Shown here: piece by piece, positions 40,432 to 59,356 of the stretch | Numbering within the stretch: position 1 is the stretch's first letter | Layout: each line of letters opens with the position of its first letter | Source: Chloroflexota bacterium | GTDB taxonomy: Bacteria; Chloroflexota; Dehalococcoidia; SpSt-223 | Direction of reading: 5' to 3' | Assembly (NCBI GenBank): GCA_023512725.1 | Contig: JAILZB010000002.1 | Span: forward strand, 1 to 59,356 | DNA length: 59,356 nucleotides | Position numbers and translations under genes: made by a program | Notes under the pieces: generated by a model | The model's database searches: none | Seen by the model: the letters and a program-made list of their open reading frames with translations, nothing else | What the model was told of the DNA's origin: nothing

Positions 40432-40445
40432 ACCGTTCGGCTCCT

Positions 40446-40585: not shown

Positions 40586-40612
40586 TGCGACTCATGAAGT
40601 GCTGAGGTGAGT

Positions 40613-42287: not shown

Positions 42288-43177
42288 TGCCCCTCCTGAG
42301 CCTGTTCCAGTACGACTTCCTGCGCCAGGCACTGATCGCCGGCACGCTGGTCGCAGTGACAGCCGGGGTGGTCGGCTACTTCCTGGTGCTGCGACAGAGT
42401 ACGTTCGCTGGCCACGCCCTCGCCCATCTTGGGTTCACTGGGGCTACCGGCGCCGCTCTGATCGGGGCGAATGTCGTCGGCGGGATGGTGCTGTTCACGC
42501 TCGCTGCTGCCCTGGTGATGGGCCTGCTCGGCGACCGCCTGCGCGGACGCGACGTAGCAATCGGCAGCGTGCTGGCTTTCAGCATGGGTCTCGGGAACCT
42601 CTTCCTCAGCCAGTCCACCCGCTTGACCAGCCGGGCTACAAGTGTTCTCTTCGGCGACCTCCTGGCTATCTCCGCCGATGCCACCCTCGTCGTGCTGGCC
42701 TGTAGCGTGTTTGTGCTGCTGGCAATTGCGCTAGCCTACCGGCCGTTGCTTTTCGCCTCGATCGACCCAGTGATTGCCGAGACCCGCGGCGTGCCCGTCC
42801 GCCTGTTCGGGGTCGGCTTTCTCCTCCTGCTCGCGCTTGCAGTCACCACCGCCACCCTGGTAGTGGGTGTGCTCTTGATCTTTGCGCTCCTGGTCACCCC
42901 GGCTGCTACCGCCCAGCGGCTGACTGCGCGGCCGGGCGCTGCCATTGCCCTTTCGGTCCTTTTCGCCGTCAGCAGTGTTTGGACGGGCCTCCTGCTGGCG
43001 CTGCTCGTGCCCTGGCCGCCCAGCTTCTTCATCACGGCGCTCTCGTTTGGCATCTACCTGCTCGTGACCGTTGGCCTACCCGCCGGGCAGCGTAGGCGCC
43101 GCTCCCGTCTGCTGCCGGCCTCTCTTCCTGCCACCGACACTCCCACCCGCCCGGAGGTGGTCAAGCAGCCGCGCTGA
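42287..43177 (+). CDS. Metal ABC-transporter permease (ZnuB/TroC-like)
   Basis: About eight TM segments. The start overlaps the stop of the ATPase gene. Confidence 0.85.
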   Translation: MPLLSLFQYDFLRQALIAGTLVAVTAGVVGYFLVLRQSTFAGHALAHLGFTGATGAALIGANVVGGMVLFTLAAALVMGLLGDRLRGRDVAIGSVLAFSMGLGNLFLSQSTRLTSRATSVLFGDLLAISADATLVVLACSVFVLLAIALAYRPLLFASIDPVIAETRGVPVRLFGVGFLLLLALAVTTATLVVGVLLIFALLVTPAATAQRLTARPGAAIALSVLFAVSSVWTGLLLALLVPWPPSFFITALSFGIYLLVTVGLPAGQRRRRSRLLPASLPATDTPTRPEVVKQPR

Positions 43178-43237
43178 GCGCGGGGACCCTCCCCTCGCTC
43201 GCGCAGCTCCTGCTGCTGGGGCCTGGTCGAGAGCGCG

Positions 43238-43417
43238 TCAGGGCACGGAAACCGGCTCGCTCGGGGCGGCCCTCCGCTGATGCGGCAGGTACTGGCCTGG
43301 AGTATGCGAGATCGGCTTGACCGGACCCTGCTTTGGCTTCCGGCTTGCCGTTCGGAAGAGCGAGAGGAAGAACGGGGCCAGCAACGCCAGCAGGTACGGG
43401 AAGGGGCAGCTACCCAT
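43238..43417 (-). CDS. Candidate small membrane protein (59 aa), absent from the ORF track (below its size cut-off)
   Basis: My own translation: MGSCPFPYLLALLAPFFLSLFRTASRKPKQGPVKPISHTPGQYLPHQRRAAPSEPVSVP. A GGAGG lies 10 nt upstream of the ATG. Third-position GC is high and there is one N-terminal TM helix. Confidence 0.3.
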   Translation of the reverse strand: MGSCPFPYLLALLAPFFLSLFRTASRKPKQGPVKPISHTPGQYLPHQRRAAPSEPVSVP

Positions 43418-43574
43418 CGTCTGAACGCCTCCACGGTGAGACCGACAGCGGCCATTCTACCGTGCCCAGCGCCCGGTTGTCACGTGTATCTAACCCAGCG
43501 TTAGCTCGCTGTTCACCTCCCGCTAATCTTCGCCCGCTACCCTCATCCTGCACTACCCAACGAGGAGAGCACCC

Positions 43575-43760
43575 ATGGCCCGACTAGCGTGCAAGCGCTG
43601 CGGTGGGACGATCGTCGCCAGCGACGACGGACCGGAATGCCTGAACTGCGGCCGTCCGCTGGTCAGGCCAGTCGTTCCTCCAACCGCCAAGCGGGTCTAT
43701 CTGCCGGGAGCTCCCGGTCCACGCCGATCCGACACCCGGCGGGTGGGCAGCCACCGCTAA
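43575..43760 (+). CDS. Small zinc-ribbon protein (61 aa)
   Basis: CKRCGG-x13-CLNCG (CxxC...CxxC), with a strong GAGGAGAG Shine-Dalgarno 6 nt upstream. Confidence 0.5.
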   Translation: MARLACKRCGGTIVASDDGPECLNCGRPLVRPVVPPTAKRVYLPGAPGPRRSDTRRVGSHR

Positions 43761-46141
43761 CGTCCGACGCTCAGCGTCCCCGCCAGCAGGGCATCACGGC
43801 CATTGCCCACCAGCCGTTCGCCCGAGAGCGGGTCATACAGCCCGGCTATCAACTGGTACTCGCCTGGGGGGAGGTCACTGGGAAGCGGCAACCGGCGTGG
43901 ATCCACGAGATATTCGCCAGCCTCCCAGCTGCTCGTCGGCCGTACTCCCCCCAGGGGCGGACCGTCGTGCTGGGCGATCAGCTTCCCATCCGCCGCCACC
44001 AGATGGAGAAAGACCGACCAGTCGCGGGCGAGGCGCGCCTCCGCCCGCCAGACGAGTTCCACCGTGACCGTCGCCCCTGGACGAGCACGTGGCGGCGTCA
44101 CCCGCACCCCAGCGAGCGCCACCGCGCTAAGGGTCTCCTCGCGCGGCTGGACCCCGGCTGGCAGCTCCCACCGACGCGGCGGCGTCTGCTCCCAGACGGT
44201 CCGACCGTCGCTCGCGAAGACGGCCAGCCGCAGCACGTCGTCCCAGAGTGCTGGTTCTCCCTCGCTCCTCCCGACCCGGAGCGGCAAGCGGCTGGCACGG
44301 TCCCAGGGGCTCCCCCCATCGGTGGCAACCAGCGAGACAGTGAACACCCCCGGACGCCGCCAGCGACCGAACGTCGGCGTGAGAGCCTGGAAGGGAGTCG
44401 CGCCCCAACGGGTCGGGGGCAAAAAGGTCGGCCCCACAAGCTGCCAGACCTCATCGCCAGGAGCAGGCGCGCGGTCTCCTTCGCTGACGATCACGAACAA
44501 GCGGTCACGCTCGTTGGGGCGCGCACCCGCGCGGAGCGCCAGCACCAGGTGGGGGGTTGAGGGTGGCTCCGGCACCAGCGTGTAGCCATCCAGGAGGAAG
44601 GTATCGCCGAAGGCGGCCTCAGCGCGGCGGGCCGGTGCTTGGGTGCGGAGCTGGTTGCGGTAGCCAGCTTCCACCTGAGCCTGGCTCGGCACTCCCCGCT
44701 GGAGGAGAAAGATGCCATCCTCCGCGGCGACGAGGCCGTAGTCACGGGCAAGCAGCTGGCGAAGGGTACGCAGCTGGTCTTCCACCACCAGCGGAACGTT
44801 GAGCGGCCAGGTATCGAGCACGACCACCTCAAAGTCGAGGCCGCGCGGATAGACCACGACCTGACGCCGCTGGGTCAGGTGTGGGTTCAGCTGAGGGGTC
44901 GCGCTGACCGATGCCTCCGGGGGAACCGCCGCAATCACCCGCTGTGCCACCGCGTAGTGCGGGTGCATCGGCTTGACTTCAAAATCCCAGGCGAGCGGCG
45001 TGAAGCCACGGGCCCGGCTGTAGCCCAGGGTCGCCACCAGCACCAGCAGGCTCGCTGCTGCCACCAGCCGCTGCCCCTGCCCGCTCCACTGAGCTAGCCG
45101 TGCTGTTCCGACGATGGCGGCAGCCACCACAAACGGGACGATCGGCGCTGGATAGTGGTTGACCTCGGGGAGCTTCTGGAGCGGGCTGTTGGAGAGCAGG
45201 TTCTCTGCCAGCGGCGGTAGCCCAAGGATGAGCACCTCCGGTGCCAGCAGAGCCAGGAACGCCACCGGTAGCAACAGCGCCAGGAGGTAGCCGAGCGGGT
45301 CACCATCTGCCAGCAACGGCCAGGCCCGCCAGGGCTGGGTCGCCAGGGTCAGCAGGATCTCCGGGATCGAGCTTCCCAGCTCGCGATAGCGCGGGAGATA
45401 GGGCGAGGCCCCACCCGGGTTGAAGTGGGGAATGACCACGAAGTTCGCCACGACGAACCACCCGGCGGCCAGCCCAATGGTCAACCCGCCGAGCCACCAG
45501 CGTCGCTGCACTAACAGTGCATACAGGCCGAGGGCGATCGCCACCAGCGGCATGTCCTCCTTGCAGCTCACTGCCAGCAAGGTGCCGAGCACGAACAGCA
45601 CGTTCTGGCGTTCCAGCAGACCGGCCACTGCCAGCGCCCAGAACGCGGCCGTCAGGGTCAGGGGGTGGAACTCGTAGAGCACTGCCGCCTGGAGCGCCGG
45701 CAGCAGCAGATAGGCGAGCGCAAAGGGAAGCGCAGCCCAGTCGCTGCCAAGGCAGCGGCGTGCCAGCCAGAAGAGTGGCACCGCCCCCAGCCCAACCACC
45801 ACCGCCTGAAGCACGAGCAGTGTGAGAGGGGTGCTCGCGACCCGATAGCTGAGCGCCAGCAGCAGCAAGACCGGCTCCACGTGCGCGCCCAACCGGTTCG
45901 TACCGCCGCGCCAGTTAGTGGATTCGAACCAGCGCCCCTGGCTCGTGTTCCAAACCGCCTGGTCCAGGTTGCCGAGGTCGTTGCCAGCGGTGCCAAACGT
46001 CAGGTGGCGATGGACGGAGAGGGCTGCAAAGAACCCGCTAAAAGCAAGCACCAGCAGCATGAGGATGAGCGTAGGCAGCCAATGCGCTCGGGCCAACGCA
46101 ACCGGGCGGCTCCGGGGCTGCGTCAGGGCAGGAGCCGTCAT
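43757..46141 (-). CDS. DUF2079-family polytopic membrane protein (GT-C-like) with C-terminal beta-rich domains
   Basis: HRHLTFGTAGNDLGNLDQAVWNTSQGRWFES is the DUF2079 signature. About 12 TM segments. The shared C-terminal domain reads ...WSVFLHLVAADGKLIAQHDGPPLGGVRPTSSWEAGEYLVD...PPGEYQLIAGLYDPLSGERL. Confidence 0.8.
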   Translation of the reverse strand: MTAPALTQPRSRPVALARAHWLPTLILMLLVLAFSGFFAALSVHRHLTFGTAGNDLGNLDQAVWNTSQGRWFESTNWRGGTNRLGAHVEPVLLLLALSYRVASTPLTLLVLQAVVVGLGAVPLFWLARRCLGSDWAALPFALAYLLLPALQAAVLYEFHPLTLTAAFWALAVAGLLERQNVLFVLGTLLAVSCKEDMPLVAIALGLYALLVQRRWWLGGLTIGLAAGWFVVANFVVIPHFNPGGASPYLPRYRELGSSIPEILLTLATQPWRAWPLLADGDPLGYLLALLLPVAFLALLAPEVLILGLPPLAENLLSNSPLQKLPEVNHYPAPIVPFVVAAAIVGTARLAQWSGQGQRLVAAASLLVLVATLGYSRARGFTPLAWDFEVKPMHPHYAVAQRVIAAVPPEASVSATPQLNPHLTQRRQVVVYPRGLDFEVVVLDTWPLNVPLVVEDQLRTLRQLLARDYGLVAAEDGIFLLQRGVPSQAQVEAGYRNQLRTQAPARRAEAAFGDTFLLDGYTLVPEPPSTPHLVLALRAGARPNERDRLFVIVSEGDRAPAPGDEVWQLVGPTFLPPTRWGATPFQALTPTFGRWRRPGVFTVSLVATDGGSPWDRASRLPLRVGRSEGEPALWDDVLRLAVFASDGRTVWEQTPPRRWELPAGVQPREETLSAVALAGVRVTPPRARPGATVTVELVWRAEARLARDWSVFLHLVAADGKLIAQHDGPPLGGVRPTSSWEAGEYLVDPRRLPLPSDLPPGEYQLIAGLYDPLSGERLVGNGRDALLAGTLSVGR

Positions 46142-48174
46142 CCGGCGATGACCTCGAGCGTTCCCAGTTCCAGGCTATCGCCTGCCGGGCCAGCCAGGCG
46201 TTGCCCGCTCGCCGGTTGATAGAGGCCAGCGAGCAGGCGGAAGCGCCCCGCGCGGTCGGCCGGGAGCGGAATGCTCTGGCGGTCGCGCACCGTTTCGCCG
46301 GGCTGCCAACTGGTGGTCGGGCGGGTGCCTGCCAGGGGTGGCGCATCGCGCTGGGCTACGATCCTCCCCTGCCCATCCACCACGTGGAGGAAGACGCTCA
46401 GTTCAGCCGGAAGGGGCGTGACGACCTGCCACTCGAGCACGACCGGAACCAGTGCTCCCGCGCGGGTGGCCTCAGGAAAGGCCCCACCGCTCAGCCGGAC
46501 CGCGCCGAGGTCGCCGGCCAGCGCCCGCACGGGCGGGACCGGGAGGGCAGCGAAGCGCGTCAGCCGCAAGCCGGCCAGCACCTCGCTCTCGGCCGGAAAC
46601 CGCTCCTGCGCCAGCACGGCACGTACCCCCGGCGCGGTCCGGCGCCCTTCTTCGCTATCGATGTACACCTCCCAGATGTCGCCCTGGGGCAGGCGGGGGG
46701 GGAGGTCGGGCAGCACCAATCGGGTCGCCAGGCTTCCGCGGAGGAGGGGAGTGAGGCGGTCGTAGAGGCCACGATCCGAGAAGAGGGCCGTCCCCTGGTG
46801 AGCGTGGAGGAACGTTACAGCCGCGGCAGCGCTCTCGGTCGGGAGACGCGTGGTGGCAGCGGTCACGGTGGCGGAAAGCACCACCCCGCTCAGGAGGACT
46901 GCCAGCGCGCCTCCGGCTGGCAAGGCCAGCCGCGCCGGGAATGGCGAGGGACGGCCAAAGAGGACGCAGCTGTACTCGACGACAAGGGCCAGGAGCAGCA
47001 CCATCCGGGCGAGCACGGCTGCTCCCAGCACGGCTGGTTGATCGGCAAAGAGCAAGAGCGCCAGGGGATACTCGACCAGGTTGACCCCGCTCAGGAGGAG
47101 GGCATAGCCGATGCCACGTGCCCCCGGCCAGAGCACCACCACGGGCGCAAGGAGGTAGACGAGGAACTGCGGGCTGTAGCCCTTGGCCACCAGGAAGAAC
47201 AGGCTGAGGGCCAGCCCACCGGCCGCCACGAGCGCGCGCGGTTGCCAGCGCCGTACGCCCAGCAGCGCTGCGCCGCCGACCATCCCCGCGAGGGCAAGGG
47301 CCAGCACGGTGGCGGGGGGAGCAGAACGGTCGCCTCCCACCGCGGTCGCAGGGTCCAGGCGGGTTTCGGGCTGGGCGACCGCTCCACCGCTGTAGTACCC
47401 CTCCGCCAGCGCCCAGACCGTCTCCCAGCTGCCGCGCGCGAGGATGCTCATCACCGAGGCTCGTGCCATCGTCGGGTTCGCCAGCGCAAAGGGCAGCGCG
47501 ATCAGTCCCGCCGCAAGCAGCGTGCCTCCCGCCAGCAACAGCGCAGCCCGGCGCTGGCCCTGGCGCCAGAGGGCGAGCGCCGCTACCGGCGCCACCACCC
47601 CCGGGATCACCTTGACCATCACCCCCACGCCCGCAGCCAGGCCGGCGAGCACTGCCCAGCCACTCGAACCTCGCTCAAGGGCGACCACCGCAAGCAGCAG
47701 GCTGAGGAGCAGAAAGAAGAGGGGATACCCTTCGAAGCCAGCAGCCCAGTAGAACACCGGGGGGAAGAGCAGCGCCCAGAGCCAGCCCGCGAGGAGACCG
47801 CGGTCCGGCCCAGCGACCCGCGTCGCCAGCCGCCCGATCAGAAGGAGGTTGCCCAGCTCGAAGAGGAGCAGCACCGTGCTGAAGACGAGCGTAAAGCCGA
47901 ATCGGGGGTTATCCCACACCGGCACGAGGGCGCTCAGGCGGTAGACCCCCACCACCAACCAAGGAAAGAGCGGGGGATGCTCCATCCAGAAATCGAGGTA
48001 GGGGTACAGGCCACGGTCGGTGAAGCGTGCCCAGTCCTCAAAGAAGAAGTAATCGCTCCAATCGGCGATGTAGCCCACCGGCCGCAGCACGAGCGGCAGC
48101 CCCAGCCGCAGGGCGAAAAAGCTCACGAGCAGGAGCAGCCACCCCGTCCGGCGCTGGGCAGCGGTCAGGCTCAC
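46138..48174 (-). CDS. GT-C-like membrane glycosyltransferase candidate (YPY.DFWMEHPPL class) with the shared C-terminal domain
   Basis: DRGLYPYLDFWMEHPPLFPW, more than 10 TM segments. The C-terminus reads ...LSVFLHVVDGQGRIVAQRDAPPLAGTRPTTSWQPGETVRD...FRLLAGLYQPASGQRL. Confidence 0.75.
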   Translation of the reverse strand: MSLTAAQRRTGWLLLLVSFFALRLGLPLVLRPVGYIADWSDYFFFEDWARFTDRGLYPYLDFWMEHPPLFPWLVVGVYRLSALVPVWDNPRFGFTLVFSTVLLLFELGNLLLIGRLATRVAGPDRGLLAGWLWALLFPPVFYWAAGFEGYPLFFLLLSLLLAVVALERGSSGWAVLAGLAAGVGVMVKVIPGVVAPVAALALWRQGQRRAALLLAGGTLLAAGLIALPFALANPTMARASVMSILARGSWETVWALAEGYYSGGAVAQPETRLDPATAVGGDRSAPPATVLALALAGMVGGAALLGVRRWQPRALVAAGGLALSLFFLVAKGYSPQFLVYLLAPVVVLWPGARGIGYALLLSGVNLVEYPLALLLFADQPAVLGAAVLARMVLLLALVVEYSCVLFGRPSPFPARLALPAGGALAVLLSGVVLSATVTAATTRLPTESAAAAVTFLHAHQGTALFSDRGLYDRLTPLLRGSLATRLVLPDLPPRLPQGDIWEVYIDSEEGRRTAPGVRAVLAQERFPAESEVLAGLRLTRFAALPVPPVRALAGDLGAVRLSGGAFPEATRAGALVPVVLEWQVVTPLPAELSVFLHVVDGQGRIVAQRDAPPLAGTRPTTSWQPGETVRDRQSIPLPADRAGRFRLLAGLYQPASGQRLAGPAGDSLELGTLEVIAG

Positions 48175-50204
48175 GCCCGCACCTCGACTACGCCAAGATC
48201 GGCAGCATCCGTTCCATCGAGGAGCAGCAGGCGTCGCCCGCTCGCATCGTACAGCCCCGCTTTCAGCCGGTAGGTACCCGGCCCAGGCAGGACGAGCGTC
48301 CGGCGGTCATCTACTGGGGTGGTGAGGGGCCAACGGCTGGTGGGCAGGGAACCTGCCGCGGGCGGGCCATCGTGCTGAGCCACCAGCTGCCCAGTGCTAT
48401 CGTAGGCGTGGAGGAAGACGGAGTACTCCGGCAACGGACGGTTCGTACTCCAGACCAGCTGGACTGCCGCGGCCGCCCCCGGCCGAGACTGCGGTGTAAC
48501 GCGCACTGCCAGGAGGGTAACCCCCTCGCTAAAACGTGCACCCGGCCGTTCTTCCAGCGCCCCAGCAGGCACGAAGCGCAGAATGCGGGCGTTGGGCAGC
48601 CATTGCTCGCCGAGGGGGAACAGCCAGCCTGCCAGGAGCTGGGTCGCCCGCTGGTGCGGCTCACGGTCGGCTGGGGTGCCCGCGAAGACGAGTGCCACTG
48701 GCTCCTCACCCAGGCCAGCCCACTGCCGGGAGGAGCCGCTTGGGTCGATGAGCACCACACGTTGCCGGAGGCCAAGGTAAGGCCGCAGCTCACGGTAGAG
48801 GGTGGGGTCGGTCACGACCACCGTTCCACCCACGGCGGCCAGCGTCTCGCGGAGTTCGCGGTAGGGGCTCGCCTCTGCCCGGCCGTGGTAGTAGGTCCAG
48901 CCCATCGCGACCACAACCCCTACGACCAGCGCAGTGGCCGCAGCCGCCGCCAGCCGGCGGAGGACTGGCGGCACTCCTCGCGGCCGTACGTGCATCCAGC
49001 ACTCACCCACGAGGGCCAGCAGCAGCGCCGTCCGCAGCAGCACCAACGCAGTCAGGATGCCACCGTGCTCGCCCAGCATCGCCAGCCAGAACGGCCACTC
49101 CAGCAGGTTGACGGTCGAGAGGAGCAGCGCGTAGGCCATCCCGCGGAGATCCGGCCAGAGCAACGGCAGCAGGGCGAGGGGGTAGACGACAAACTGCGCG
49201 CTCCAGCCCTTGGCGGCAAGGAGCACGAGCAGGAGGCTCAGCGTCGCGAGCGTCACCACTGTCAGTGGCTTGCGCCAATCATGGCGGCGGGCAAGGGCCA
49301 GCGCGATCAGTCCTCCCGCGGCGAGGGAGAGGAGAGTCCAGGGGAAGCGGGCAGGGTGCTGCGGCTGGTAGGCAGCCAGCGCATCGAAGCGTCGATCGAG
49401 GGGGGCGACCATCCCGCCACCGACATAGCCATCGAGCAAGGCGTAGACTGTCTCCCATGACGAGCGCGTCAAGATACTGGCGTAGGAGGCGATGGTCATC
49501 TCCGGGTTCAGCAGGAGGAAAGGCAGCGCGATCAGCAGCACGGTGAGCGTGAGCGCAAGCGCACACAGCCCGGCTGCGCTGCGCCGTTGGTGCCAGAAGG
49601 CGACCACCACCGCCGGAGCGATTGCGATCGGCAGCACCTTGTACTGGAACCCCAGGCCAAGCGCGACGCCGGCCAGCAGCGCGCGCCAGCGTACTCCCCG
49701 CTCGCTCGGCAACGCCAACCAGAGGGCGAACAGGAGTGCGAGCACTGCCGGCCCATCGTAGCCAGCGAGGAAAAAGTAGAGCGGCAGGAGGAGCGAGGCC
49801 CACGCCGCCGCCGCCAGGAGCGCCAGCGGCTGACCCCAAAGGCGACGCCCGATGAGCCCTATCAGGGCGAGAGTAAGCAGGTCAGCCAGCCAGAGCGGAA
49901 GTCCAGTGGTCAGGCTGAACCACAGGGTCGGATCGCGCCAGGGAGGCAGCCACTGGGCAAGCCAGTAGCTGACGACTCCAAAGAGGGGCAGCAGCGGGGG
50001 GTATTCCATCCAGAAGTCGCGGTACGGGAAGTAGCCGGCGTCGACGTAGCGCAACCAGCCAGCGAAGAAGTAGCGCTCCGACCAGTCGACCACATAGCCA
50101 CCCGGGCGCCAGCTCACCAGCGCTGCCAGCCGGAAAGCCCCCACGAGAGCAAGAAGGGCGAGCAACCACTGCTCTCGCTGCAGCCAGAGAAGCCAGCGTC
50201 TCAC
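48171..50204 (-). CDS. Paralog of 46138..48174 (GT-C-like membrane protein)
   Basis: DAGYFPYRDFWMEYPPLLPL. The C-terminus reads ...YSVFLHAYDSTGQLVAQHDGPPAAGSLPTSRW...YRLKAGLYDASGRRL. Confidence 0.75.
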   Translation of the reverse strand: MRRWLLWLQREQWLLALLALVGAFRLAALVSWRPGGYVVDWSERYFFAGWLRYVDAGYFPYRDFWMEYPPLLPLFGVVSYWLAQWLPPWRDPTLWFSLTTGLPLWLADLLTLALIGLIGRRLWGQPLALLAAAAWASLLLPLYFFLAGYDGPAVLALLFALWLALPSERGVRWRALLAGVALGLGFQYKVLPIAIAPAVVVAFWHQRRSAAGLCALALTLTVLLIALPFLLLNPEMTIASYASILTRSSWETVYALLDGYVGGGMVAPLDRRFDALAAYQPQHPARFPWTLLSLAAGGLIALALARRHDWRKPLTVVTLATLSLLLVLLAAKGWSAQFVVYPLALLPLLWPDLRGMAYALLLSTVNLLEWPFWLAMLGEHGGILTALVLLRTALLLALVGECWMHVRPRGVPPVLRRLAAAAATALVVGVVVAMGWTYYHGRAEASPYRELRETLAAVGGTVVVTDPTLYRELRPYLGLRQRVVLIDPSGSSRQWAGLGEEPVALVFAGTPADREPHQRATQLLAGWLFPLGEQWLPNARILRFVPAGALEERPGARFSEGVTLLAVRVTPQSRPGAAAAVQLVWSTNRPLPEYSVFLHAYDSTGQLVAQHDGPPAAGSLPTSRWPLTTPVDDRRTLVLPGPGTYRLKAGLYDASGRRLLLLDGTDAADLGVVEVRA

Positions 50205-52216
50205 CGTCCGGCAACCTCTACGGTGGCGAAGGGGGCTGAGAACTGCCCGGTGGACTGGCCGCTCAGGTCAAACACGGTCCACGGGCGTTTGCTGTAGTAG
50301 CTATAGACGACCACCCGGAGCTGGTAGCTGCCTGCGGGCGCGTCAGGCGGGATGAGCAGGCGGTAGCGGTCGTAGTACACCGCCCCCTGCTTGATCCGAT
50401 CGGTGGTGAGCAGGCCGTCCCAGGGCTCCTTGTCGACCTGGGCGATCGCCCGACCCTCCGGCCCCCAGAGCTGGAGGGAACTGACCGCACGGAAGCGGAC
50501 GCGGCGCACCTCGATGGGGGTAACTGGCCGCCAGTACAGACCGATGGTCGCCGGTTCACCGGCCGGGAGCGGCTGGGGAGGGAGGTCGTAGCCGACCAGT
50601 TCCAGCTGGGGTCGCCCGCCAGCCGCAAAGGGAATCCGCAGCGGGTGCTGGATCGGCAGTGGATCTACGCGCTGGAAGATCCCGTAGCCATCCTCCTGCC
50701 AGAGCAAGCGATAGAGGGGGTTGTTCCACAGCTCATCAAGGGCGCGCCCGAACTGCTCGGGGGTCAACGGCCAGTAGTCCGACCAGTTATCGAGCAGGAC
50801 GTATTGGGCATCGTGGATGTTGGGGTAGAGATAGACCTCGCGCCGGTGAGCAAGATGCGGCAGCAAGTCCGATTGCACGGAGAGAGAGGCATCCGGAGGA
50901 ATGCGCCTGAACGCTTCCTGGGCGAAGCGGGTATGGTTGTCGATCATGAATTGCTCCGGGTCATGACGCCGGCCAAGCGGCGTCGGCCCGAAAGCGATCG
51001 TGGTTGCGACCGCGGCGATCAGCACGTAGCTCGCGAGTGCATACCTGCCCGCGACCGAACGGAACGGCCGCCAGCGAGCGAGCCAGCTACAGGCCAGGAT
51101 CGTCCCGGCCATCAGGAAGGGGAGAAGCGGCGCGCTGTACTGGTTGACGATGTCGTACTGCTCTTTGTAGTTCGAAAGCAGGAGATACCCGAAGGTCGGG
51201 AGGGAGAGCGCAAAGATCGGCAGGCCGAGAGGGGGCAGCAGCCCCAGTGGCCCCAGCAAGCGCACAAGATACTCGAGGCGCGGCGCCGTCGCGAGCTGGC
51301 TGAGCACCCAGAGCGGCCGGGTGAGCACCGTCAGGAGGATCTCAGGGATCGAATCGCCAAGCCAGCCGTAGCGGACGACGAAGTAGTAGACCGGTGCGTT
51401 CTGAAAATGGGGCACCGCCCAGCCGACGGTCACGAGCAGCCAGCTCGCCCCCACGATGAGCAGCGCCAGCCCCCAGCGCCAGCGGCGCACCACCAGCAGC
51501 GCCACACCAAACGCCATCACGGTGATGGCGATCTCCTCGCGGCAGAGCAGCGCGAGCCCGAGGCAGGCCGCCAGCGGCAGCGGTTGGCGCCGATCGAACC
51601 AGTAGACCGCTCCCAGCAGCAGCGGCGTCGTCAGAGCGATCTCGTGGAAGTCGAACAGGTTGAGGTAGTGGAGAGCCGGCAGCAGCAGATAGGCCGCCGC
51701 CAGCAAGAGAGCCACCCCGGCACTCGCGAGCCGTCGCTTCGCCAGCGCGTAGACCGGCAGCGCCCCGAGACCAAGCGCGACCGTCTGGAGCAGGAGGAGC
51801 GCGCGCGGGTCGGGCCAGACCCAGTAGAGGGGAACGAGCAAGAGGAACACCGGCGCAAAGTGCTGGCCGAGCAGGTTCGCCGAGTACTCGATCATGACGG
51901 TGTTCTCGAACCAGCGGCCCTGGCTCGTGTTCCAAAGCACCTGGGTGAAGATCCCAAGGTCGTAAGCGTGGCTCTTGAGCGCATGATGACGGGTGAGGGA
52001 GAGGCTGCCGAGCGCCACCACGTAGCCTGCTACCAGCAGACCGAGCAGGAGCGGCGTGGCCCGGGCAACGAGGCTCTCGTACCGTTTACTGGCCAGCGCG
52101 AGCGGTCGGCGGAGGAGAGTCAGCACAAGCCAGACAAGCCCTGCTCCGGCCAGGGCCACCGCCAGTGGTAGGAGCAGTTCACCGAAAAGATCGAGCTCGC
52201 CCAGCGACCGTTGCAT
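50201..52216 (-). CDS. DUF2079-family polytopic membrane protein (second copy)
   Basis: HHALKSHAYDLGIFTQVLWNTSQGRWFEN, with a divergent copy of the C-terminal domain (...GSYQLRVVVYSYY...). Confidence 0.8.
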   Translation of the reverse strand: MQRSLGELDLFGELLLPLAVALAGAGLVWLVLTLLRRPLALASKRYESLVARATPLLLGLLVAGYVVALGSLSLTRHHALKSHAYDLGIFTQVLWNTSQGRWFENTVMIEYSANLLGQHFAPVFLLLVPLYWVWPDPRALLLLQTVALGLGALPVYALAKRRLASAGVALLLAAAYLLLPALHYLNLFDFHEIALTTPLLLGAVYWFDRRQPLPLAACLGLALLCREEIAITVMAFGVALLVVRRWRWGLALLIVGASWLLVTVGWAVPHFQNAPVYYFVVRYGWLGDSIPEILLTVLTRPLWVLSQLATAPRLEYLVRLLGPLGLLPPLGLPIFALSLPTFGYLLLSNYKEQYDIVNQYSAPLLPFLMAGTILACSWLARWRPFRSVAGRYALASYVLIAAVATTIAFGPTPLGRRHDPEQFMIDNHTRFAQEAFRRIPPDASLSVQSDLLPHLAHRREVYLYPNIHDAQYVLLDNWSDYWPLTPEQFGRALDELWNNPLYRLLWQEDGYGIFQRVDPLPIQHPLRIPFAAGGRPQLELVGYDLPPQPLPAGEPATIGLYWRPVTPIEVRRVRFRAVSSLQLWGPEGRAIAQVDKEPWDGLLTTDRIKQGAVYYDRYRLLIPPDAPAGSYQLRVVVYSYYSKRPWTVFDLSGQSTGQFSAPFATVEVAGR

Positions 52217-52953
52217 CAGTCCTTGCTCGCGAGCGCGATCACACTCAGCCCGAACGGGAGCGACCAGCGGCGGAGCAGCTGCCCCTCAGCCGCGAGGACG
52301 GCAGTCAGGAGCTGGTTGAGAGCGGGAGCGACCGGCTGCAGGTCCGAATCGCTGCTCTGGGGAGCGGCCAGGCTCTCGTAGACCCGCTTCGCCGCGGCCA
52401 CCGGGAAGAGCACGCTATTCAAATAGCTTGCCCGGCGCACCCGCAGCCCAACTGCAGCCAGCTTCGCGACCAGCTCCCCACGGATGTAGCGGTGGCGGGT
52501 GTGCACCGCTCGGTCGTGCCTGCCGCGCAGCCAATCGTAGGCCGGCACGCGCACGAGCACCCACCCCCCCAGCCGGGTCACTCGCGCCAGCTCGGCCAGG
52601 GCTAACCGGTCATCGCTAACCGCCAGATGGTAGATGACCTCAAAGGAGGTCACCAGGTCGAACGTGCTATCGGGAAACGGCAGCGCCGTGATCGATGCGC
52701 GCACCAGCGGGCCGCCGTTGCGGCAGCGTGCCAGTTGCAACGCCTCTGCCGCGAGGTCGATCCCAACGGGGCACCCGTAGCGCCGCAGGAACTCGAGGTT
52801 CTTCCCGGTGCCGCAGCCCGCATCGAGGATCCGACGCGCTGGTTGCGGCGGCAGGGACGCATCGAGCAAGGCAGCCACTGCCCGGCGCATCCCGGCGTAC
52901 CACCAGAACTGGTCTTCCAGTTCGTACATCCGGCGGTACTCTCCCAGCTTCAT
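52216..52953 (-). CDS. Class I SAM-dependent methyltransferase embedded in the GT-C operon
   Basis: EDQFWWYAGMRR, ILDAGCGTGKN and FDLVTSFEVIYHL. It forms a TGATG overlap with the downstream gene and a 4-nt overlap with the upstream gene. Confidence 0.85.
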   Translation of the reverse strand: MKLGEYRRMYELEDQFWWYAGMRRAVAALLDASLPPQPARRILDAGCGTGKNLEFLRRYGCPVGIDLAAEALQLARCRNGGPLVRASITALPFPDSTFDLVTSFEVIYHLAVSDDRLALAELARVTRLGGWVLVRVPAYDWLRGRHDRAVHTRHRYIRGELVAKLAAVGLRVRRASYLNSVLFPVAAAKRVYESLAAPQSSDSDLQPVAPALNQLLTAVLAAEGQLLRRWSLPFGLSVIALASKD

Positions 52954-55169
52954 GGGCGCACCTGCACCGTCGCGAGGGGAACCGCGTCGCCCATACTGCT
53001 GCCCAACCGCCTCCCGCTCGCGAGGTCGTACATCCCGCCAACGAGCCGGTAGTCCCCCGGTGTCACCGGCACCACGAGCTGGACCGGGTCAGCGAGGCGA
53101 TCGCCCGCCACCCAGGCCGAGGTCGGGAAGAGCCCGCCACGGGGCTGAGCGTCGTACTGCACCACCAGGCGGCCGCTGGCATCGAGCAGCTGGACGAAGA
53201 CGGTATAGTCCCGCGACGGCACCGCATTCGCCTGCCAGACGAGGTCCAGAGCGAGCGGCGTTCCCGGCGGAACGATAATCACCCCTCTCGCAGCAGCGGG
53301 GCGTGCACTGTAGCCCACCAGTTCGATCCCATCCTCCAGGGGCACCCCAAGCGTAACGGCCGGTGGCGGGGGTGGCGGACCAACCACCACGAGCCGTCCG
53401 ATCGTGAGGGAGGTGCCCGTGCCACCGTCGGGCGTGCGGACTGGCAAGCGCTGGAAGTCGGTCACCGGATAGAAGCCGATCACGACCTCGTAGACCCCCG
53501 GAGTTGCCGTGGCAGAGACCGGCACGCTCCGTTCATCGAAGATTGCTTCACCCGCGCGCCAGTAGCGTGTCGGGTAGACGTTGCGGGTCGGCGGGCCATC
53601 CCGCTGGCCGGCCTTCTCCAGCCGCTGGTTAAGCAGGTGGACGAATACCATGTAATGCTCATCCAGGTCTCGGAGTGGCTGCCAGGTGAACGAGAACTGC
53701 ACGTTCTCCCCCGGTCGGACCCGCTGGGGTGCAAAGCGATAGCCGACCAACCGGATCTGCTCGCCGAACACCGCTCCGCTCAGCTGGCCGACCCGCGTTG
53801 GATCGTAGCTCGCTGCCACCAGCTGAGGACTACGCACGAACACGACGACTGCCACTGCTGCGACGAATCCCAGGGCAGGCACCGCCACCCGACGCGACCA
53901 GGAGAAGCCGACCAGGCGCAGCGTCCACCAGCCAAAACTGGCCACGTAGCACAAGGCGTTGACCAGCGTGAGGCTGAGGTGACGATAGTGCAGCGCTAGC
54001 TCTTGCAGGCGAGCGTAGATGAGCGAGTCGTGCAGGACGAGGTTCACCAGAAAGACCATCGAGAGCACGAGGTAAAGCCAGCGCAGCGCTCGCTCACGCC
54101 ACCACACCAGCGCGAGCAGCGGCAGGACGGCGTAGGCATGGGTCTCATGGACGACCGTCATCAGCATAAAGAGCACGAGCCCGGTGTAGGCGGCAATCTC
54201 CAGCGTGCGGAGCTCGTCACGGGTCCGCCAGGCGCACCAGAGGGCGAAGGCCCACCCCAGCACGAGTAGCCCGATCGCGACGAGGCGGTAAGAGAGGGGG
54301 CCGAGGAACGGCTCGGTATCCCGGATCTGCCAGGCGTAGCCCCAGCCGACCAGCCACCAGAGATTGTGGGCGTTGTTGGAGAGGAAGGGGTCGTAGTCGG
54401 CCATCCGCAGCATCTGGGTCAGGATGCCGTCCGCCGTCCCCGCCAGCAGAAACGGTCCGGTCGCCAGCAGTACGCCTGCTGCTATCCCCACTACTCCGCG
54501 CAAGCAGCCAGGCAGTCCTTGCTCACGCAGCGTGATCAGGGCAACGAGGGGAGCAAAGATATCCGCCTGCGGCTTGGTAAAGACCCCCAGCGTAATCACC
54601 CCCCACGCGAGGGCCGGCCGCCGCGCCAGCGCCAGCCAGAGAGCGCCGACGATCATGACAGCGTGCGGGGAGTCGGGCATCCCCCAGTAGGCCAGGTCGA
54701 AGATAACAGCCGGGTTGAAGGCGTAGCCGAGGGAAGCGGCCAATGCCCAGCGCGGCCCGCCGCGCGGAAGCACGAAGCGATAGATCAGCAGCGCGAGAAC
54801 AAGGTCCAGCACCAGGCCGGGAGCACGGATGAGCGCGGTAAACTCGGGCCGGTCGAGGTCGAGGGTCGGCGAGACCCAGGCCCGGTAGGCCCGTGCGCCG
54901 AGGTCGAGCCAGTAGAGGAACATCGGTGGATAGTCGACCACCACCGGACCGTCGTACGCGTGGACCGCGCCCCGCTCCGCGATCACCCGCAACCAGCTCT
55001 TGTACACCTCCAGGTCCCAGACGTTCCCTCCACTCCCAGCAAGAGCCACTCGCACTCCCAGCGCCACGAGCAGGCCAAGGGCAAGCAGCACCCCGCTCTC
55101 GCGGGCAAAAGGACGCGCAGGCGCGAGCGCGACCAGCGAGGGGCCCCGCGGTGGCACGGCCGTGCTCAC
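52950..55169 (-). CDS. GT-C-like membrane glycosyltransferase candidate (DYPPM class; DUF2029/GT87- or ALG6/8-like) with two C-terminal domain copies
   Basis: VWDLEVYKSWLRV...VVVDYPPMFLYWL, more than 12 TM segments, and two tandem copies of the shared domain (IRLVGYRF... and IELVGYSA...). Confidence 0.75.
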   Translation of the reverse strand: MSTAVPPRGPSLVALAPARPFARESGVLLALGLLVALGVRVALAGSGGNVWDLEVYKSWLRVIAERGAVHAYDGPVVVDYPPMFLYWLDLGARAYRAWVSPTLDLDRPEFTALIRAPGLVLDLVLALLIYRFVLPRGGPRWALAASLGYAFNPAVIFDLAYWGMPDSPHAVMIVGALWLALARRPALAWGVITLGVFTKPQADIFAPLVALITLREQGLPGCLRGVVGIAAGVLLATGPFLLAGTADGILTQMLRMADYDPFLSNNAHNLWWLVGWGYAWQIRDTEPFLGPLSYRLVAIGLLVLGWAFALWCAWRTRDELRTLEIAAYTGLVLFMLMTVVHETHAYAVLPLLALVWWRERALRWLYLVLSMVFLVNLVLHDSLIYARLQELALHYRHLSLTLVNALCYVASFGWWTLRLVGFSWSRRVAVPALGFVAAVAVVVFVRSPQLVAASYDPTRVGQLSGAVFGEQIRLVGYRFAPQRVRPGENVQFSFTWQPLRDLDEHYMVFVHLLNQRLEKAGQRDGPPTRNVYPTRYWRAGEAIFDERSVPVSATATPGVYEVVIGFYPVTDFQRLPVRTPDGGTGTSLTIGRLVVVGPPPPPPAVTLGVPLEDGIELVGYSARPAAARGVIIVPPGTPLALDLVWQANAVPSRDYTVFVQLLDASGRLVVQYDAQPRGGLFPTSAWVAGDRLADPVQLVVPVTPGDYRLVGGMYDLASGRRLGSSMGDAVPLATVQVRP

Positions 55170-57232
55170 GCCCCCTCCGCAACCACAAGTGAGGTCAGGA
55201 TGAGGCGGCCTTGCTCATCAGCCGAAGGCAGCCGCTCACCCGTTGGCGGCCAGTACCACCCCACCTCAACAAGGTACTCTCCCGCCGGGGTGGTTGGTGC
55301 CACCGTGAATGAGCGCTGATCGCGGACGACCTGTCCCGGCCGCCACTGCTGGGTGGGAAATTCCCCCCCGAGCGGGTAGCCATCGGCCTGCCCCCAGACG
55401 GGTGTCCCGTTCGCGGGGTTCAGCTGCCCGCCGATCAGGTGGGCGAACACGACCCAGGGGCGGTCGAGCCGCTGGGTGGGCTGCCAGTAGAGGGTAAGGT
55501 CGACCTGATCGCCCGGTCGTACCCGGTCACCGGGGGCCAGCCGGCGGCCCGCGCTGGCCAGCTCAAAGCCAAGCAGGTGGAGGCCCGGCCCCAGCACCCC
55601 ACCAGGGGGAAGGATAGTCCGCGCGGGCAGCCCAGGCGGGGGCTCCGTCCGGATGATGTCGATCGGCGCGAGCGGAAGCGTGCCCGCTGCGCTCTCGACC
55701 TCAACCTGATAGCGCCCTGCGGGCGTGTAGCGGTACACGGCAAACTCGACCTGCTGGCGGACCACTTCACCCATCTGGGCCTGCCGATCGTCCAGCACCC
55801 ATTCTTCGAGGGGAACGCCCTGCCGATCGCGCAGGCGGAGCACCACGGGCCCCGCTGCCGCCCCAGCAGCCCGCCAATAGAGGGCAACGTGCCCCACGTC
55901 ACCAGGAGCCAGCCGACGCGCGGGGAGGTCGTAGCCGAGGAGTTGCCGCTCACCCCCAAGCGGCGCGACCAGCGGGGTCTGGGGAGCGAGCGTTTGGAGC
56001 GTGGGAGGCCGGCCAGCACGGTCGTAGAGGGTCAGGCGGTTATACCCATTCGGCTGGTCATACACCTTCGGGCGGTGCGCATCCAGCCAGGCCGCAATCG
56101 CAAAGGTCGGATCCTGCAGGTGGGCCTCCGCCGCGACGAGCCAGATGCGCTGGTGGCGCTCAGCGATCGGGCCAATATCGCCAGCGGCACTCACGGCAGT
56201 GGCAGGAACGGTGTAGGGCAGGCCGTACCAGCGCGGCTGCGCGGGCACGCCGGGGAGGAAGAGATAGCTGAACAGCACTCCACGGTCCCCCGAGACGAGC
56301 ACGACCCCGTCATCCGGTCGAGCGTAGGCCCGGAGGGCAGCCACGACCGAGTCGAACTCGTCCCGGTGCCGGCGCGCGCTCAAATAGTCCAGAGTGAACA
56401 GCCCGCTCACGATGATTACGCCAGCGCTTGCCACCAGGCCAAGCGGCCGCCAGACGCGGAGGGCCGCCCCGAGGGCAGCTGCCACCAGCAGCGCTCCTGC
56501 GGGTGCCGCCAGCAGGAAATAGCGCGCCTCCAGGCGGGGGGAGTAGAACAGCGCCCGCGGCTGGGTGGCATACCAGACGGCCGCTGGCACGACCAGCGCG
56601 ATGAGCAATGGGGCCAGCCAGCCGAAGGCCCAGCCCGGCCCTCGCCCGCGGGGATGGAGCGCAAACAGTCCAAACCCTCCGAGCAGGAGCAGCACCGCAA
56701 GCACTCCCGGCCAGAACCGGTCGATGTCGACCGAGACGCCGGTAGTCATCACTACCGCAGAGAGGCGAACGAAGAGGCCAAAATCGACCGGCTCAGCAGT
56801 CGACCAGCTCCGCATCCGGCTACTCGCAACCAGTACCCAGCCACCAAAGAGTGCCCCCACCAGCAGGTTGGCGCCGAGCCAGTGCTTCCCCAGGGTGACT
56901 GCAGCCCGCCAGCGGCCGTTCATCAGCTCCTGCAGGAGGGCGAGGGTGACAAAGAGCGAGAGGGCCAGCAGCACCGCACCACTGAGATAGAGTGTCCAGA
57001 GGGCGAGCGAGGCTGCTGCGACGTAGCCCCACTCCCAGCGCCGCCGTTGGACTGCCCGGAGGGCAAAGAAACAGGCTGCCAGGGCAAAAGCCGTCGCTGG
57101 GGCGTACATGCGAAGCTCCTGCGACCACCAGACGGGAAACCGCGCCACGGCCAGGAGCAGCGCAGCCAACAGCGCCACTCGCCAGCCTCCCAGCAGCCGC
57201 CCGACCGGAATAGCCAGCGCTACCGTCAGCAC
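55166..57232 (-). CDS. ArnT/PMT_2 (GT39/GT83-like) membrane glycosyltransferase, 5'-truncated, with two C-terminal domain copies
   Basis: SQELRMYAP motif. In-frame family-typical sequence (FFWLLWLQVRLAGESEFAGRFVALAAG) continues upstream of the first GTG up to a stop at 57323-57325. The usual first 60-80 aa are absent. Confidence 0.7.
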   Translation of the reverse strand: MLTVALAIPVGRLLGGWRVALLAALLLAVARFPVWWSQELRMYAPATAFALAACFFALRAVQRRRWEWGYVAAASLALWTLYLSGAVLLALSLFVTLALLQELMNGRWRAAVTLGKHWLGANLLVGALFGGWVLVASSRMRSWSTAEPVDFGLFVRLSAVVMTTGVSVDIDRFWPGVLAVLLLLGGFGLFALHPRGRGPGWAFGWLAPLLIALVVPAAVWYATQPRALFYSPRLEARYFLLAAPAGALLVAAALGAALRVWRPLGLVASAGVIIVSGLFTLDYLSARRHRDEFDSVVAALRAYARPDDGVVLVSGDRGVLFSYLFLPGVPAQPRWYGLPYTVPATAVSAAGDIGPIAERHQRIWLVAAEAHLQDPTFAIAAWLDAHRPKVYDQPNGYNRLTLYDRAGRPPTLQTLAPQTPLVAPLGGERQLLGYDLPARRLAPGDVGHVALYWRAAGAAAGPVVLRLRDRQGVPLEEWVLDDRQAQMGEVVRQQVEFAVYRYTPAGRYQVEVESAAGTLPLAPIDIIRTEPPPGLPARTILPPGGVLGPGLHLLGFELASAGRRLAPGDRVRPGDQVDLTLYWQPTQRLDRPWVVFAHLIGGQLNPANGTPVWGQADGYPLGGEFPTQQWRPGQVVRDQRSFTVAPTTPAGEYLVEVGWYWPPTGERLPSADEQGRLILTSLVVAEGA

Positions 57233-57412
57233 CCCGGCCGCGAGGGCGACAAATCGGCCCGCGAACTCGCTCTCTCCAGCAAGGCGTACCTGCAGCCAGA
57301 GCAGCCAGAAGAAGGCGGAGTCTCATATGCGTTCCATCTGTGGAGACGCCCGGCGGGACGGGCCGGATTACCGCCTCAATGTAAACGAATGTCAAGGAGT
57401 TTTCGATGAAGC

Positions 57413-57865
57413 TCAGGTCACCGGCGCCGGATTGAACAGCACGAGGTCATTTTCGAGGCCGTGCTGCTCCGACCACGTCCTGCGGCCGGAGGCCGTTTCC
57501 AGAATGAGCCGGAACAGCGCCCAGCCGGCCTGTTCGATGTTCATTCCGCCCGCGGCGATGCCGCAGGCGTCGAAGTCGATCAGGTCCGGCCAGCGCCGTG
57601 CCAGCGCCGTGCGCGAACTCACCTTGATCACCGGGCACATGGGCAGCCCATACGGCGAGCCCAGGCCGGTGGTGAACACATGGACGTTCATCCCCGCGGC
57701 CAGTTCGAGCGTTCCGCAAATGAAGTCGCTCGCCGGGCCGGCCAGAAACAGCAGGCCTTTCTTTGTCGCCCGTTCGCCCGGCGCAATGACGCCCTCCAGC
57801 GGCGCCGTGCCGGACTTCGCCACCGACCCCAGCGCGCTGATGATGACGGTGTTCGGCGCCGACGA
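57413..57865 (-). pseudogene. 3' fragment (about 150 codons) of a GarD/UxaA-family sugar-acid dehydratase
   Basis: ...[65 protein letters not shown]...[11 protein letters not shown] matches only the C-terminal third of this roughly 520-aa family. Confidence 0.7.
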
Positions 57866-57872
57866 CAGCATC

Positions 57873-59226: not shown

Positions 59227-59356
59227 ATGCCTATACCACGCGGGGAGCCCCATTCATGCTCATGAGCTCGGCAGGCGAGTCGTCACATGGTCAACTACCC
59301 GCCACCAATCTTCTTTACTCGATACGGACAGCGAAGGTCCCTGGACCCCACACCGT

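Follow-up and report, generated by a model that had tools for sequence, protein, structure and literature searches.

Organization of the gene block

The window analyzed here is the whole 59,356-nt stretch of contig JAILZB010000002.1 from a Chloroflexota bacterium (assembly GCA_023512725.1). Seven consecutive open reading frames (ORFs), named G1-G7 in transcription order, occupy positions 43757-57322 on its minus strand, and are discussed below as a candidate system for making a cell-surface glycoconjugate outside the membrane. The genes, as assigned in this study, are as follows.

55166-57232 with the frame open to 57322, minus strand: G1, PMT_2 (ArnT/PMT-like) glycosyltransferase-C (GT-C) enzyme, 5'-truncated, 688 aa from the first start codon; Pfam PMT_2, E = 1.3e-12.
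52950-55169, minus strand: G2, ALG6/Gpi18-like GT-C enzyme, 739 aa, two C-terminal β-sandwich domains; AlphaFold2 (AF2) model and annotation of relatives.
52216-52953, minus strand: G3, soluble class I S-adenosylmethionine (SAM)-dependent methyltransferase, 245 aa; Methyltransf_11, E = 2e-20.
50201-52216, minus strand: G4, DUF2079 protein, 671 aa, GT-C membrane domain followed by a putatively periplasmic α/β domain and a β-sandwich; PF09852, E = 2e-82, and AF2 model.
48171-50204, minus strand: G5, distant GT87-like GT-C enzyme, 677 aa, first-loop motif DFWMEYPPL; sub-threshold PMT_2/GT87 matches and profile alignment to the G2 family.
46138-48174, minus strand: G6, paralogue of G5, 678 aa, first-loop motif DFWMEHPPL; blastp of G5 against G6, E = 1e-96.
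43757-46141, minus strand: G7, second DUF2079 protein and paralogue of G4, 794 aa; PF09852, E = 4e-66, and blastp of G4 against G7, E = 4e-64.

From G1 to G7, the start and stop codons overlap by 4, 4, 1, 4, 4, and 4 nt at the six junctions (GTGA, ATGA, TGATG, GTGA, GTGA, and ATGA, respectively), and a GGAGG-like stretch lies ahead of the G2 start. The gene coordinates and junctions given in an earlier reading of the window, made from the letters alone (hereafter, the sequence-only reading), agree exactly with the ORF coordinates. With a stop/start overlap at every junction, which is kept in the orthologous loci, the block appears to be a single translationally coupled operon. A consensus scan of the block for internal terminator- or promoter-like sites gave no excess over expectation (8 against 6.8, and 1 against 0.5, respectively), which fits a single transcript without proving it.

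The window has a G+C content of 68%, and the G+C content at the third codon position of all seven ORFs (0.79-0.84) is the coding signature of the window. Compared with a 98.9%-identical strain, the seven genes show 134 nucleotide differences, 93 of which are at codon position 3 and only 31 of which change an amino acid. Because the differences concentrate on codon position 3 and few are amino-acid-changing, the seven ORFs are real genes under purifying selection. No glycan-related gene was found among the other scanned ORFs of the window, so that the lack of sugar-supply genes pointed out in the sequence-only reading is borne out there.

The membrane proteins as GT-C enzymes

Structure models were made with AF2 and compared with the Protein Data Bank (PDB) by Foldseek for G2 and G4, while G1, G5, G6, and G7 were assigned by sequence. 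G1 matches Pfam PMT_2 with 48.6 bits against a cut-off of 26.1. G4 and G7 match DUF2079 (PF09852, cut-off 28.2) with 278 bits, over profile positions 1-457 of 459, and 224.3 bits, respectively, and are paralogues with 38% identity. The model of G4 has a predicted local distance difference test (pLDDT) score of 95.9 and a predicted template modeling (pTM) score of 0.93. Judging from this model, DUF2079 can be assigned to the GT-C fold, because every one of the 20 best PDB matches belongs to the GT-C enzymes (ArnT, STT3/oligosaccharyltransferase (OST), ALG12, ALG9, DPY19, and PglB); the match to ArnT has an E-value of 1.9e-6. A profile alignment of DUF2079 with the G2 family gave a probability of 91.5%.

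G2 has no Pfam match at E <= 0.01, including Alg6_Alg8 (PF03155, CAZy GT57). Its relatives are labelled "Gpi18-like mannosyltransferase", and some of them at 33-38% identity carry precomputed PF03155 (Alg6_Alg8) or PF09594 (GT87) assignments. The best PDB match of the G2 model (pLDDT 86.4) is yeast ALG6 (6snh) with an E-value of 1.8e-6 over 452 aligned columns, and the TM-score, normalized to the target ALG6, is 0.65. The G2 family profile also reaches GPI mannosyltransferase 1 among PDB sequences at E = 2e-4. The invariant residues of the family are Asp52, Asp79-Tyr-Pro-Pro82, Lys199, Asn266-Ala-His-Asn269, and His341-Glu342. In its predicted structure, G2 is thus ALG6-like in fold, though not demonstrated to be a member of the ALG6/ALG8 family by the Pfam threshold.

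G5 and G6 are paralogues with 40% identity (blastp), and their PMT_2 matches, like the GT87 match of G5, lie below the Pfam curated threshold. In the G5 family, 12 of 20 members match Pfam GT87 (best E = 3e-11), a family that we take to include PimE. An hhalign comparison of the G2 family with the G5/G6 family aligned 308 columns of the membrane domain with 97% probability and E = 6e-11, placing DYPP on EYPP. From these profiles, G5 and G6 are best described as distant relatives of GT87, not as members by the Pfam criterion. G2 is thus a relative of the Alg6_Alg8 enzymes, and G5 and G6 are relatives of the GT87 enzymes, each probably with a similar working mode.

The positions of the acidic residues following the first transmembrane helix (TM1) should be noted. 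Invariant or nearly invariant acidic residues are found there in G2 (Asp52 and Asp79), G4 (Asp86), G5 and G6 (Asp-Phe-Trp-Met-Glu), and G7 (Asn-Asp-Leu-Gly-Asn-Leu-Asp). The corresponding Trp-Trp-Asp-Glu of G1 is seen in the intact orthologue only, since the copy in the window is without the loop. The catalytic Asp of PimE, ALG6, ArnT, and PglB sits in the first outer loop (PMC12041525), and the position of the conserved residues in all orthologue sets agrees with this site, as placed by sequence position rather than by active-site geometry.

The proteins might be something other than monosaccharide transferases, some or all of them acting as polyprenyl-diphosphate-oligosaccharide polymerases or ligases, as ArnT/EptA-type lipid modifiers, or as membrane scaffolds. 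ArnT, the best structural match of G4, is a lipid A-modifying enzyme; PDB sequence searches with G1, G2, G4, and G5, and with the G5 profile, found nothing significant; and literature searches turned up no functional study of DUF2079 (PF09852), in line with the sequence-only reading, which had called it a family without assigned function. However, the top structural matches are all GT-C enzymes with lipid-phosphate or lipid-diphosphate donors, the acidic residues in the first loop are conserved, and similarity to Wzy, WaaL, or transporters is absent in the Pfam and Foldseek results. We regard this alternative as very improbable, and prefer to read the six proteins as GT-C monosaccharide transferases. 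An NCBIfam scan of the operon proteins gave nothing diagnostic.

The evidence thus supports the assignment of all six membrane proteins to GT-C enzymes of four families, PMT_2, ALG6/Gpi18-like, DUF2079 (two proteins), and GT87-like (two proteins): by model and Foldseek for G4 and G2, by Pfam for G1 and G7, and by profile and the GT87 matches of the family for G5 and G6. The family labels in the sequence-only reading stand for G1 (PMT_2), G4 and G7 (DUF2079), and G3 (SAM methyltransferase), as does the GT-C label for G2, G5, and G6, although these last three miss the Pfam thresholds.

A shared C-terminal β-sandwich domain

All six membrane proteins end in one all-β domain of ~125 aa, which the sequence-only reading did not describe. 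Its consensus is L.GY..P..vrPG....L.W.....dy.VF.HL.d..G..vaQ.D..P..G..PTs.W..Ge...D......P....pG.Y.L..GlYd..sG.RL. and the pairwise E-values of the domain between otherwise unrelated operon proteins range from 1e-10 to 1e-25. By hmmsearch with a profile of the domain (A4), G2 has two strong copies and each of the other five membrane proteins has one, seven in all (i-E, independent E-value).

55178-55570, minus strand: copy in G1, i-E = 8e-48; it is preceded by a second, degenerate one (residues 460-542 of the open frame).
53382-53768, minus strand: first copy in G2, i-E = 1e-52.
52956-53339, minus strand: second copy in G2, i-E = 1e-47.
50210-50614, minus strand: copy in G4, i-E = 3e-46, all-β in the AF2 model.
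48177-48533, minus strand: copy in G5, i-E = 6e-44.
46147-46503, minus strand: copy in G6, i-E = 5e-48.
43763-44128, minus strand: copy in G7, i-E = 1e-53; a degenerate second copy lies upstream.

Residues 509-792 of G7 align with residues 466-737 of G2, and the α/β domain preceding the β-sandwich is common to G4 and G5. The isolated C-terminal domain matches no Pfam or NCBIfam model, apart from a single weak ML-domain match. Among clusters at 50% identity, 29,682 have a representative that matches its profile (20,520 at E <= 1e-10), often with three or four tandem copies. Nearly all of 48 sampled carriers have GT-C domains, the most frequent Pfam assignments being PMT_2 (26), PTPS_related (9), PMT (7), TMEM260-like (4), YfhO (4), and DUF2142 (1). 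Present in ~30,000 protein clusters but covered by neither Pfam nor NCBIfam, this domain of ~125 aa merits a family of its own.

The PDB neighbors of the domain in the G4 model are the O-antigen-binding Wzt-C, NPC2/ML lipid-binding, and MG2-type sandwiches. Carbohydrate-binding modules are documented on the GT-C enzymes EmbC, AftD, and GT136 (PMC3044687, PMC11127046), and that of the GT136 enzyme binds the acceptor (PMC11127046). The shared domain is the best available hint that the six enzymes serve one acceptor. Judging from its fold in the model, it may instead bind the lipid part of a substrate.

The domain might also recognize a protein, in a machine that attaches and elongates O-linked mannosyl-type glycans on secreted or S-layer proteins. 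G1 belongs to PMT_2, and the sampled domain carriers include the seven PMT proteins and the four of the TMEM260-like protein O-mannosyltransferase family. Tepidiforma has an S-layer over its peptidoglycan (PMC10284905), and in Haloferax an outer-face Dol-P-Man transferase completes the S-layer glycan (PMC3871713). However, membership in the broad PMT_2 family is by itself no sign of a protein acceptor; ALG6-like and GT87-like enzymes are known to act on lipid-linked glycans and glycolipids rather than on proteins (PMC12041525); and a gene for an S-layer protein or another substrate is absent in and beside the block in the four genomes described next. We consider such a machine unlikely and favor a common glycoconjugate acceptor of wider definition.

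Conservation of the block

The seven-gene block occurs with identical order and overlapping junctions in four Dehalococcoidia metagenome-assembled genomes (MAGs), GCA_026003915.1, GCA_026003895.1 (KatS3mg060), GCA_025054935.1 (RMM58), and GCA_046328265.1 (STL-CHL33), with protein identities of 55-78%. The overlap pattern is repeated in loci L001, L003, L005, and L007, with 1 nt in place of 4 at one junction. The flanking genes differ in two of the four genomes. Because order and overlaps are kept while the flanks differ, comparison of the loci indicates that the block is inherited as a unit with its boundaries at G1 and G7. The conservation anticipated for the block is thus seen as the same seven-gene unit in four MAGs, though within a narrow clade only. 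A full orthologue of G2 is present in only 2 of 185,579 species-representative genomes. A widespread seven-gene block was considered and rejected, as the unit is confined to this clade and the distant relatives of G4 and G5 are solitary.

The orthologues of G6 are 64-75% identical, and the two paralogue pairs are 38-40% identical, well below the orthologues at 61-78%. Both duplications predate the clade, with both copies kept, because the paralogues are far less alike than the orthologues. Retention of the paralogues, as judged from these identities, argues against simple redundancy.

Truncation of G1 and the breakpoint

Positions 40202-57314 of the window align to a contig of GCA_026003915.1 (locus L005) with 98.9% identity and 182 scattered substitutions, and G4 and G5 are ~100% identical to proteins of this MAG, "Dehalococcoidia bacterium KatS3mg061". 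From this alignment, the window appears to come from a close strain of GCA_026003915.1. The end of the alignment is the following feature.

57314/57315, inside G1, no strand: breakpoint, at which the blastn similarity of the window to L005 stops; 57315-59356 is unrelated.

Intact G1 in L005 is 813 aa and includes TM1 and a WWDEG...DVHPP loop. G1 in the window lacks ~98 codons, which correspond to TM1 and this presumed catalytic loop; the loop is conserved in all orthologues. The open frame of G1 is bounded by an in-frame TGA at 57325-57323, and its first start codon is the GTG at 57232. Because the similarity ends at a junction with unrelated DNA while the reference G1 is intact, the truncation is a local rearrangement or an assembly join and no property of the system. 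G1 had been described as 5'-truncated, which is correct for the window but not for the system, given the intact 813-aa orthologue. A decaying pseudogene was also considered for G1 and is unsupported, as codon position 3 accounts for 14 of the 20 differences from the reference, and the truncation coincides with a junction to unrelated DNA.

Upstream of G1, L005 carries TMEM175 and ClpP genes. About 4.5 kb upstream of G1, at 1-94 of L005, there is another GT87-family gene (316 aa), which is cut by the locus end and, owing to the breakpoint, is not part of the window. On the other side of the junction, the window contains a C-terminal fragment of a galactarate/altronate dehydratase at 57413-57985 on the minus strand, which covers only positions 100-240 of the Pfam profile, and a Cys-rich ORF of 361 aa at 58141-59226 on the plus strand, which belongs to no Pfam or NCBIfam family. 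A plasmid search with an ORF beyond the junction gave a single weak match only. The G+C content at the first codon position is 0.55-0.69 beyond the junction, against 0.70-0.77 in the operon genes. The stretch 57315-59356 has a mosaic look, reflecting an insertion or else a chimeric join made during assembly.

The methyltransferase and sub-modules in other genomes

In PDB and NCBIfam comparisons, G3 is similar to class I SAM methyltransferases of many kinds, among them sugar O-, phospholipid N-, and natural-product enzymes. A tblastn search with the domains of the window against 73 loci encoding G2-like proteins revealed three recurring sub-modules. In the first, a G2-like gene adjoins a G3-like methyltransferase gene (35-40% identity, E ~1e-45) in Verrucomicrobiota/Chthoniobacterales and several other lineages. 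The G2-like genes in Chthoniobacterales and other lineages are flanked by GT2, nucleotide-sugar, and G3-like methyltransferase genes. L043 has the order epimerase, GT2, G2-like, methyltransferase, and second G2-like, with PMT_2 and GT2 on the opposite strand, and L083 has GT2, DegT, methyltransferase (4-nt overlap), and G2-like. A fusion of the G2-like protein with the methyltransferase in Verrucomicrobia, considered from tblastn matches ~170 nt apart, was rejected, as the two are separate ORFs 13 nt apart. The recurring pair supports a functional tie of the methyltransferase to the G2-type enzyme, and on gene neighborhood G3 would be closest to G2. An ALG6-like GT-C enzyme and a class I methyltransferase are thus a module across Chloroflexota, Verrucomicrobiota, and other phyla, often beside an ArnC- or dolichol-phosphate mannose synthase (DPMS)-like GT2.

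In the second sub-module, found in Anaerolineae, a G2-like gene is followed by a PMT_2 gene with the shared C-terminal domain. The third consists of long GT-C arrays. In L016 (Chloroflexota MAG CSMAG_1213), seven same-strand GT-C genes occupy 1612-20205 in the order PTPS_related, PMT_2, PMT_2, G2-like, PMT_2, PMT_2, and DUF2079, most of them with one to three copies of the β-sandwich. Similar match patterns are found in L012 and L055, and long GT-C gene arrays seem to recur in Chloroflexota beyond this clade.

A divergent variant of the operon lies at 6783-14375 of L084 (Logan SRR21358899 contig). It consists of a G1 orthologue (53% identity), a GT2 gene, a G2 orthologue (55% identity, 66% in the membrane domain), and a gene for a 701-aa protein unrelated to G4-G7; a methyltransferase is absent from this variant operon. 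The GT2 protein has 250 aa, its gene lies between the G1 and G2 orthologues with a 4-nt overlap with the former, and its best matches are ArnC, DPMS, GtrB, and other polyprenyl-phosphate glycosyltransferases. Because ArnC/DPMS-like GT2 genes lie in or beside related clusters (L084, L043, and L083), these neighbors give indirect support to polyprenyl-phosphate monosaccharides as the putative donors.

The same variation could mean that the operon is a collection of six independent Gtr*/ArnT-type decorating transferases, with different side-chain sugars or targets, that came together via duplication and co-regulation. Most characterized bacterial GT-C enzymes work singly in three-component systems (PMC11127046), and the two paralogue pairs show that duplication occurred. 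The sub-modules G1-G2, G2-methyltransferase, and GT2-G2 are separate in other lineages, and the seven-gene GT-C arrays of other Chloroflexota have another composition. On the other hand, the order, the 1- or 4-nt overlaps, and the boundaries are conserved at 55-78% identity despite the changed flanks, one acceptor-side domain is common to all six enzymes, and no matching set of six donor synthases and flippases accompanies them. Independent decoration is quite unlikely in our view, and joint action on one acceptor is the reading developed below.

Proposed mechanism

We propose, at a probability of roughly 60%, that the operon builds or decorates a cell-surface glycoconjugate outside the membrane, using lipid-linked sugars, one common acceptor, and a methylated sugar. 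From the gene structure, the families, the folds of G2 and G4, the shared domain, and the conservation of the block, we infer a donor type, a common acceptor, an order, a topology, and a methylation target as follows. Each GT-C enzyme would take a sugar, most likely a hexose (mannose or glucose, for example), from a polyprenyl-phosphate-linked monosaccharide on the outer face of the cytoplasmic membrane, and would extend one shared, growing surface glycoconjugate. Candidates for the acceptor are wall polysaccharides, lipoglycans, and S-layer or secreted glycoproteins. The β-sandwich domain would hold this common acceptor, like the carbohydrate-binding modules of EmbC, AftD, and GT136. For two ideas of the sequence-only reading, a single polymer or acceptor and lipid-linked sugars, the shared domain and the ArnC/DPMS-like GT2 genes of related clusters, respectively, give indirect support. 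The donor synthases and flippases would be encoded elsewhere in the genome.

SAM is unavailable outside the cytoplasm, and G3 would for this reason act on the cytoplasmic side. It would methylate the sugar before the sugar crosses the membrane, on a nucleotide- or polyprenyl-phosphate-linked donor or on a primer. A precedent is the Agl system of Haloferax volcanii, whose lipid-linked glycan pathway includes both the methyltransferase AglP and AglS, an outer-face Dol-P-Man transferase (PMC3871713). Among relatives in culture, the thermophilic Dehalococcoidia Tepidiforma have peptidoglycan and an S-layer (PMC10284905).

Several observations weigh against this proposal. A donor synthase, a flippase, and a candidate acceptor gene are absent from the operon and the scanned ORFs of the window, so that the pathway is not closed. 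The global TM-scores of G4 against GT-C structures are modest (0.33-0.49), the GT87 (PF09594) score of G5 is 18.2 bits where 25 are required, and G6 has no GT87 match. Hydropathy and positive-inside analysis under-called the helices and gave no usable topology. The resemblance of the shared β-sandwich extends to lipid-binding ML/NPC2 domains, so that carbohydrate binding is not the sole reading of it, and G3 is a generic methyltransferase without a diagnostic family. The block is not maintained beyond the narrow clade, where a relative of G4 (48% identity) and relatives of G5 (34%) are solitary. The carriers of the block are uncultured MAGs.

In its most far-reaching form, the proposal would make the operon a bacterial analogue of the lumenal ALG pathway of the endoplasmic reticulum (ER), with GT-C enzymes alone putting together a whole surface glycan outside the cytoplasm. 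DUF2079 would then found a new glycosyltransferase family. The β-sandwich would be a new and very widespread module for acceptor binding, by which GT-C enzymes are tied to one polymer or to each other in a complex. A methylated polyprenyl-phosphate sugar, an undescribed donor type, would be both produced and consumed by the G2-methyltransferase pair. These features jointly are a bold conjecture, to which we give little credence.

The envelope chemistry of Chloroflexota is little known, and the carriers of the operon are uncultured thermophiles (source, hot spring). A conserved GT-C operon gives genetic access to a route of extracytoplasmic glycan synthesis in this phylum. Should its enzymes work one after another, the operon would also be a compact system for studying the hand-over of an acceptor between GT-C enzymes.

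Other features of the window

A T-box leader is located at 40191-40439 on the minus strand, directly upstream of an acetolactate-synthase-like gene; its 96 bits against Rfam RF00230 exceed the gathering score. The leader overlaps the annotated start of this thiamine pyrophosphate-dependent gene (38397-40268), the true start of which is probably further downstream. At 1461-4810 on the plus strand, HEPN_Swt1 is followed by DUF499 across two ORFs (1461-3119 and 2978-4810) that overlap by 142 nt in different frames; the pair may be a frameshifted or two-part defense-type gene.

Three class I SAM methyltransferase paralogues are encoded on the plus strand (22764-23726, 26491-27555, and 27449-28489), with N-terminal extensions of ~130-180 aa that match no family. 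Between them lie genes for a GFO/IDH/MocA oxidoreductase and an amine oxidase, and no link to the GT-C operon was seen. An ORF of 387 aa at 33069-34232 on the plus strand contains a Ham1p-like (dITP/XTP pyrophosphatase) domain at residues 190-378. Its N-terminal 190 aa are unassigned, reflecting either a fusion or a miscalled start.

Comparison with known systems

The mycobacterial and corynebacterial enzymes for lipomannan, lipoarabinomannan, and arabinogalactan (PimE, MptA-D, EmbA-C, and AftA-D) act serially as GT-C enzymes on the outer face with polyprenyl-phosphate sugars, as is proposed for the operon. EmbC and AftD carry C-terminal carbohydrate-binding modules (PMC3044687, PMC11127046), and the catalytic Asp sits in the first outer loop (PMC12041525), where acidic residues of the operon proteins would also lie. 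G5 and G6 have a distant likeness to GT87. In contrast, the operon has DUF2079, ALG6-like, and PMT_2 proteins and no Emb or Aft families; its six GT-C genes are translationally coupled, have the same C-terminal domain throughout, and enclose a methyltransferase gene. The host belongs to Chloroflexota, and nothing related to the mycolata wall was seen in the window.

In the ER-lumenal ALG pathway with OST, a series of GT-C enzymes (ALG3, 9, 12, 6, 8, and 10) adds single hexoses from Dol-P-Man or Dol-P-Glc to a lipid-linked glycan. G2 best matches ALG6, and G4 matches ALG12, ALG9, and STT3. However, no operon protein reaches Pfam Alg6_Alg8, and the genes form a bacterial operon whose products have extra β-sandwich domains. 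Nothing seen here points to a lipid-linked oligosaccharide as the acceptor or to a transfer by an OST.

In the three-component systems (GtrA/GtrB/Gtr*, ArnC/ArnEF/ArnT, and GT136), a GT2 synthase makes the polyprenyl-phosphate monosaccharide from which a GT-C enzyme transfers the sugar. The GT-C enzymes and the ArnC/DPMS-like GT2 proteins of related clusters are features in common. Unlike these systems, the operon has six GT-C genes, and neither a GT2 polyprenyl-phosphate sugar synthase nor a small flippase is found in it or among the scanned ORFs of the window. This composition points to glycan assembly rather than to decoration with a single side chain.

The Agl system of Haloferax volcanii (AglP and AglD/AglR/AglS) likewise combines a SAM-dependent methyltransferase with an outer-face Dol-P-Man transferase, and its target is the S-layer (PMC3871713). 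Most of the Agl pathway depends on cytoplasmic GT-A/GT-B enzymes, of which the block has none, and the likeness drawn here is one of logic. In overall logic the operon is also like the mycobacterial set and the ALG series, while its individual steps are like those of the three-component systems (PMC11127046). Viewed against these four systems, the operon most likely combines familiar machinery in a new way and introduces no new principle.

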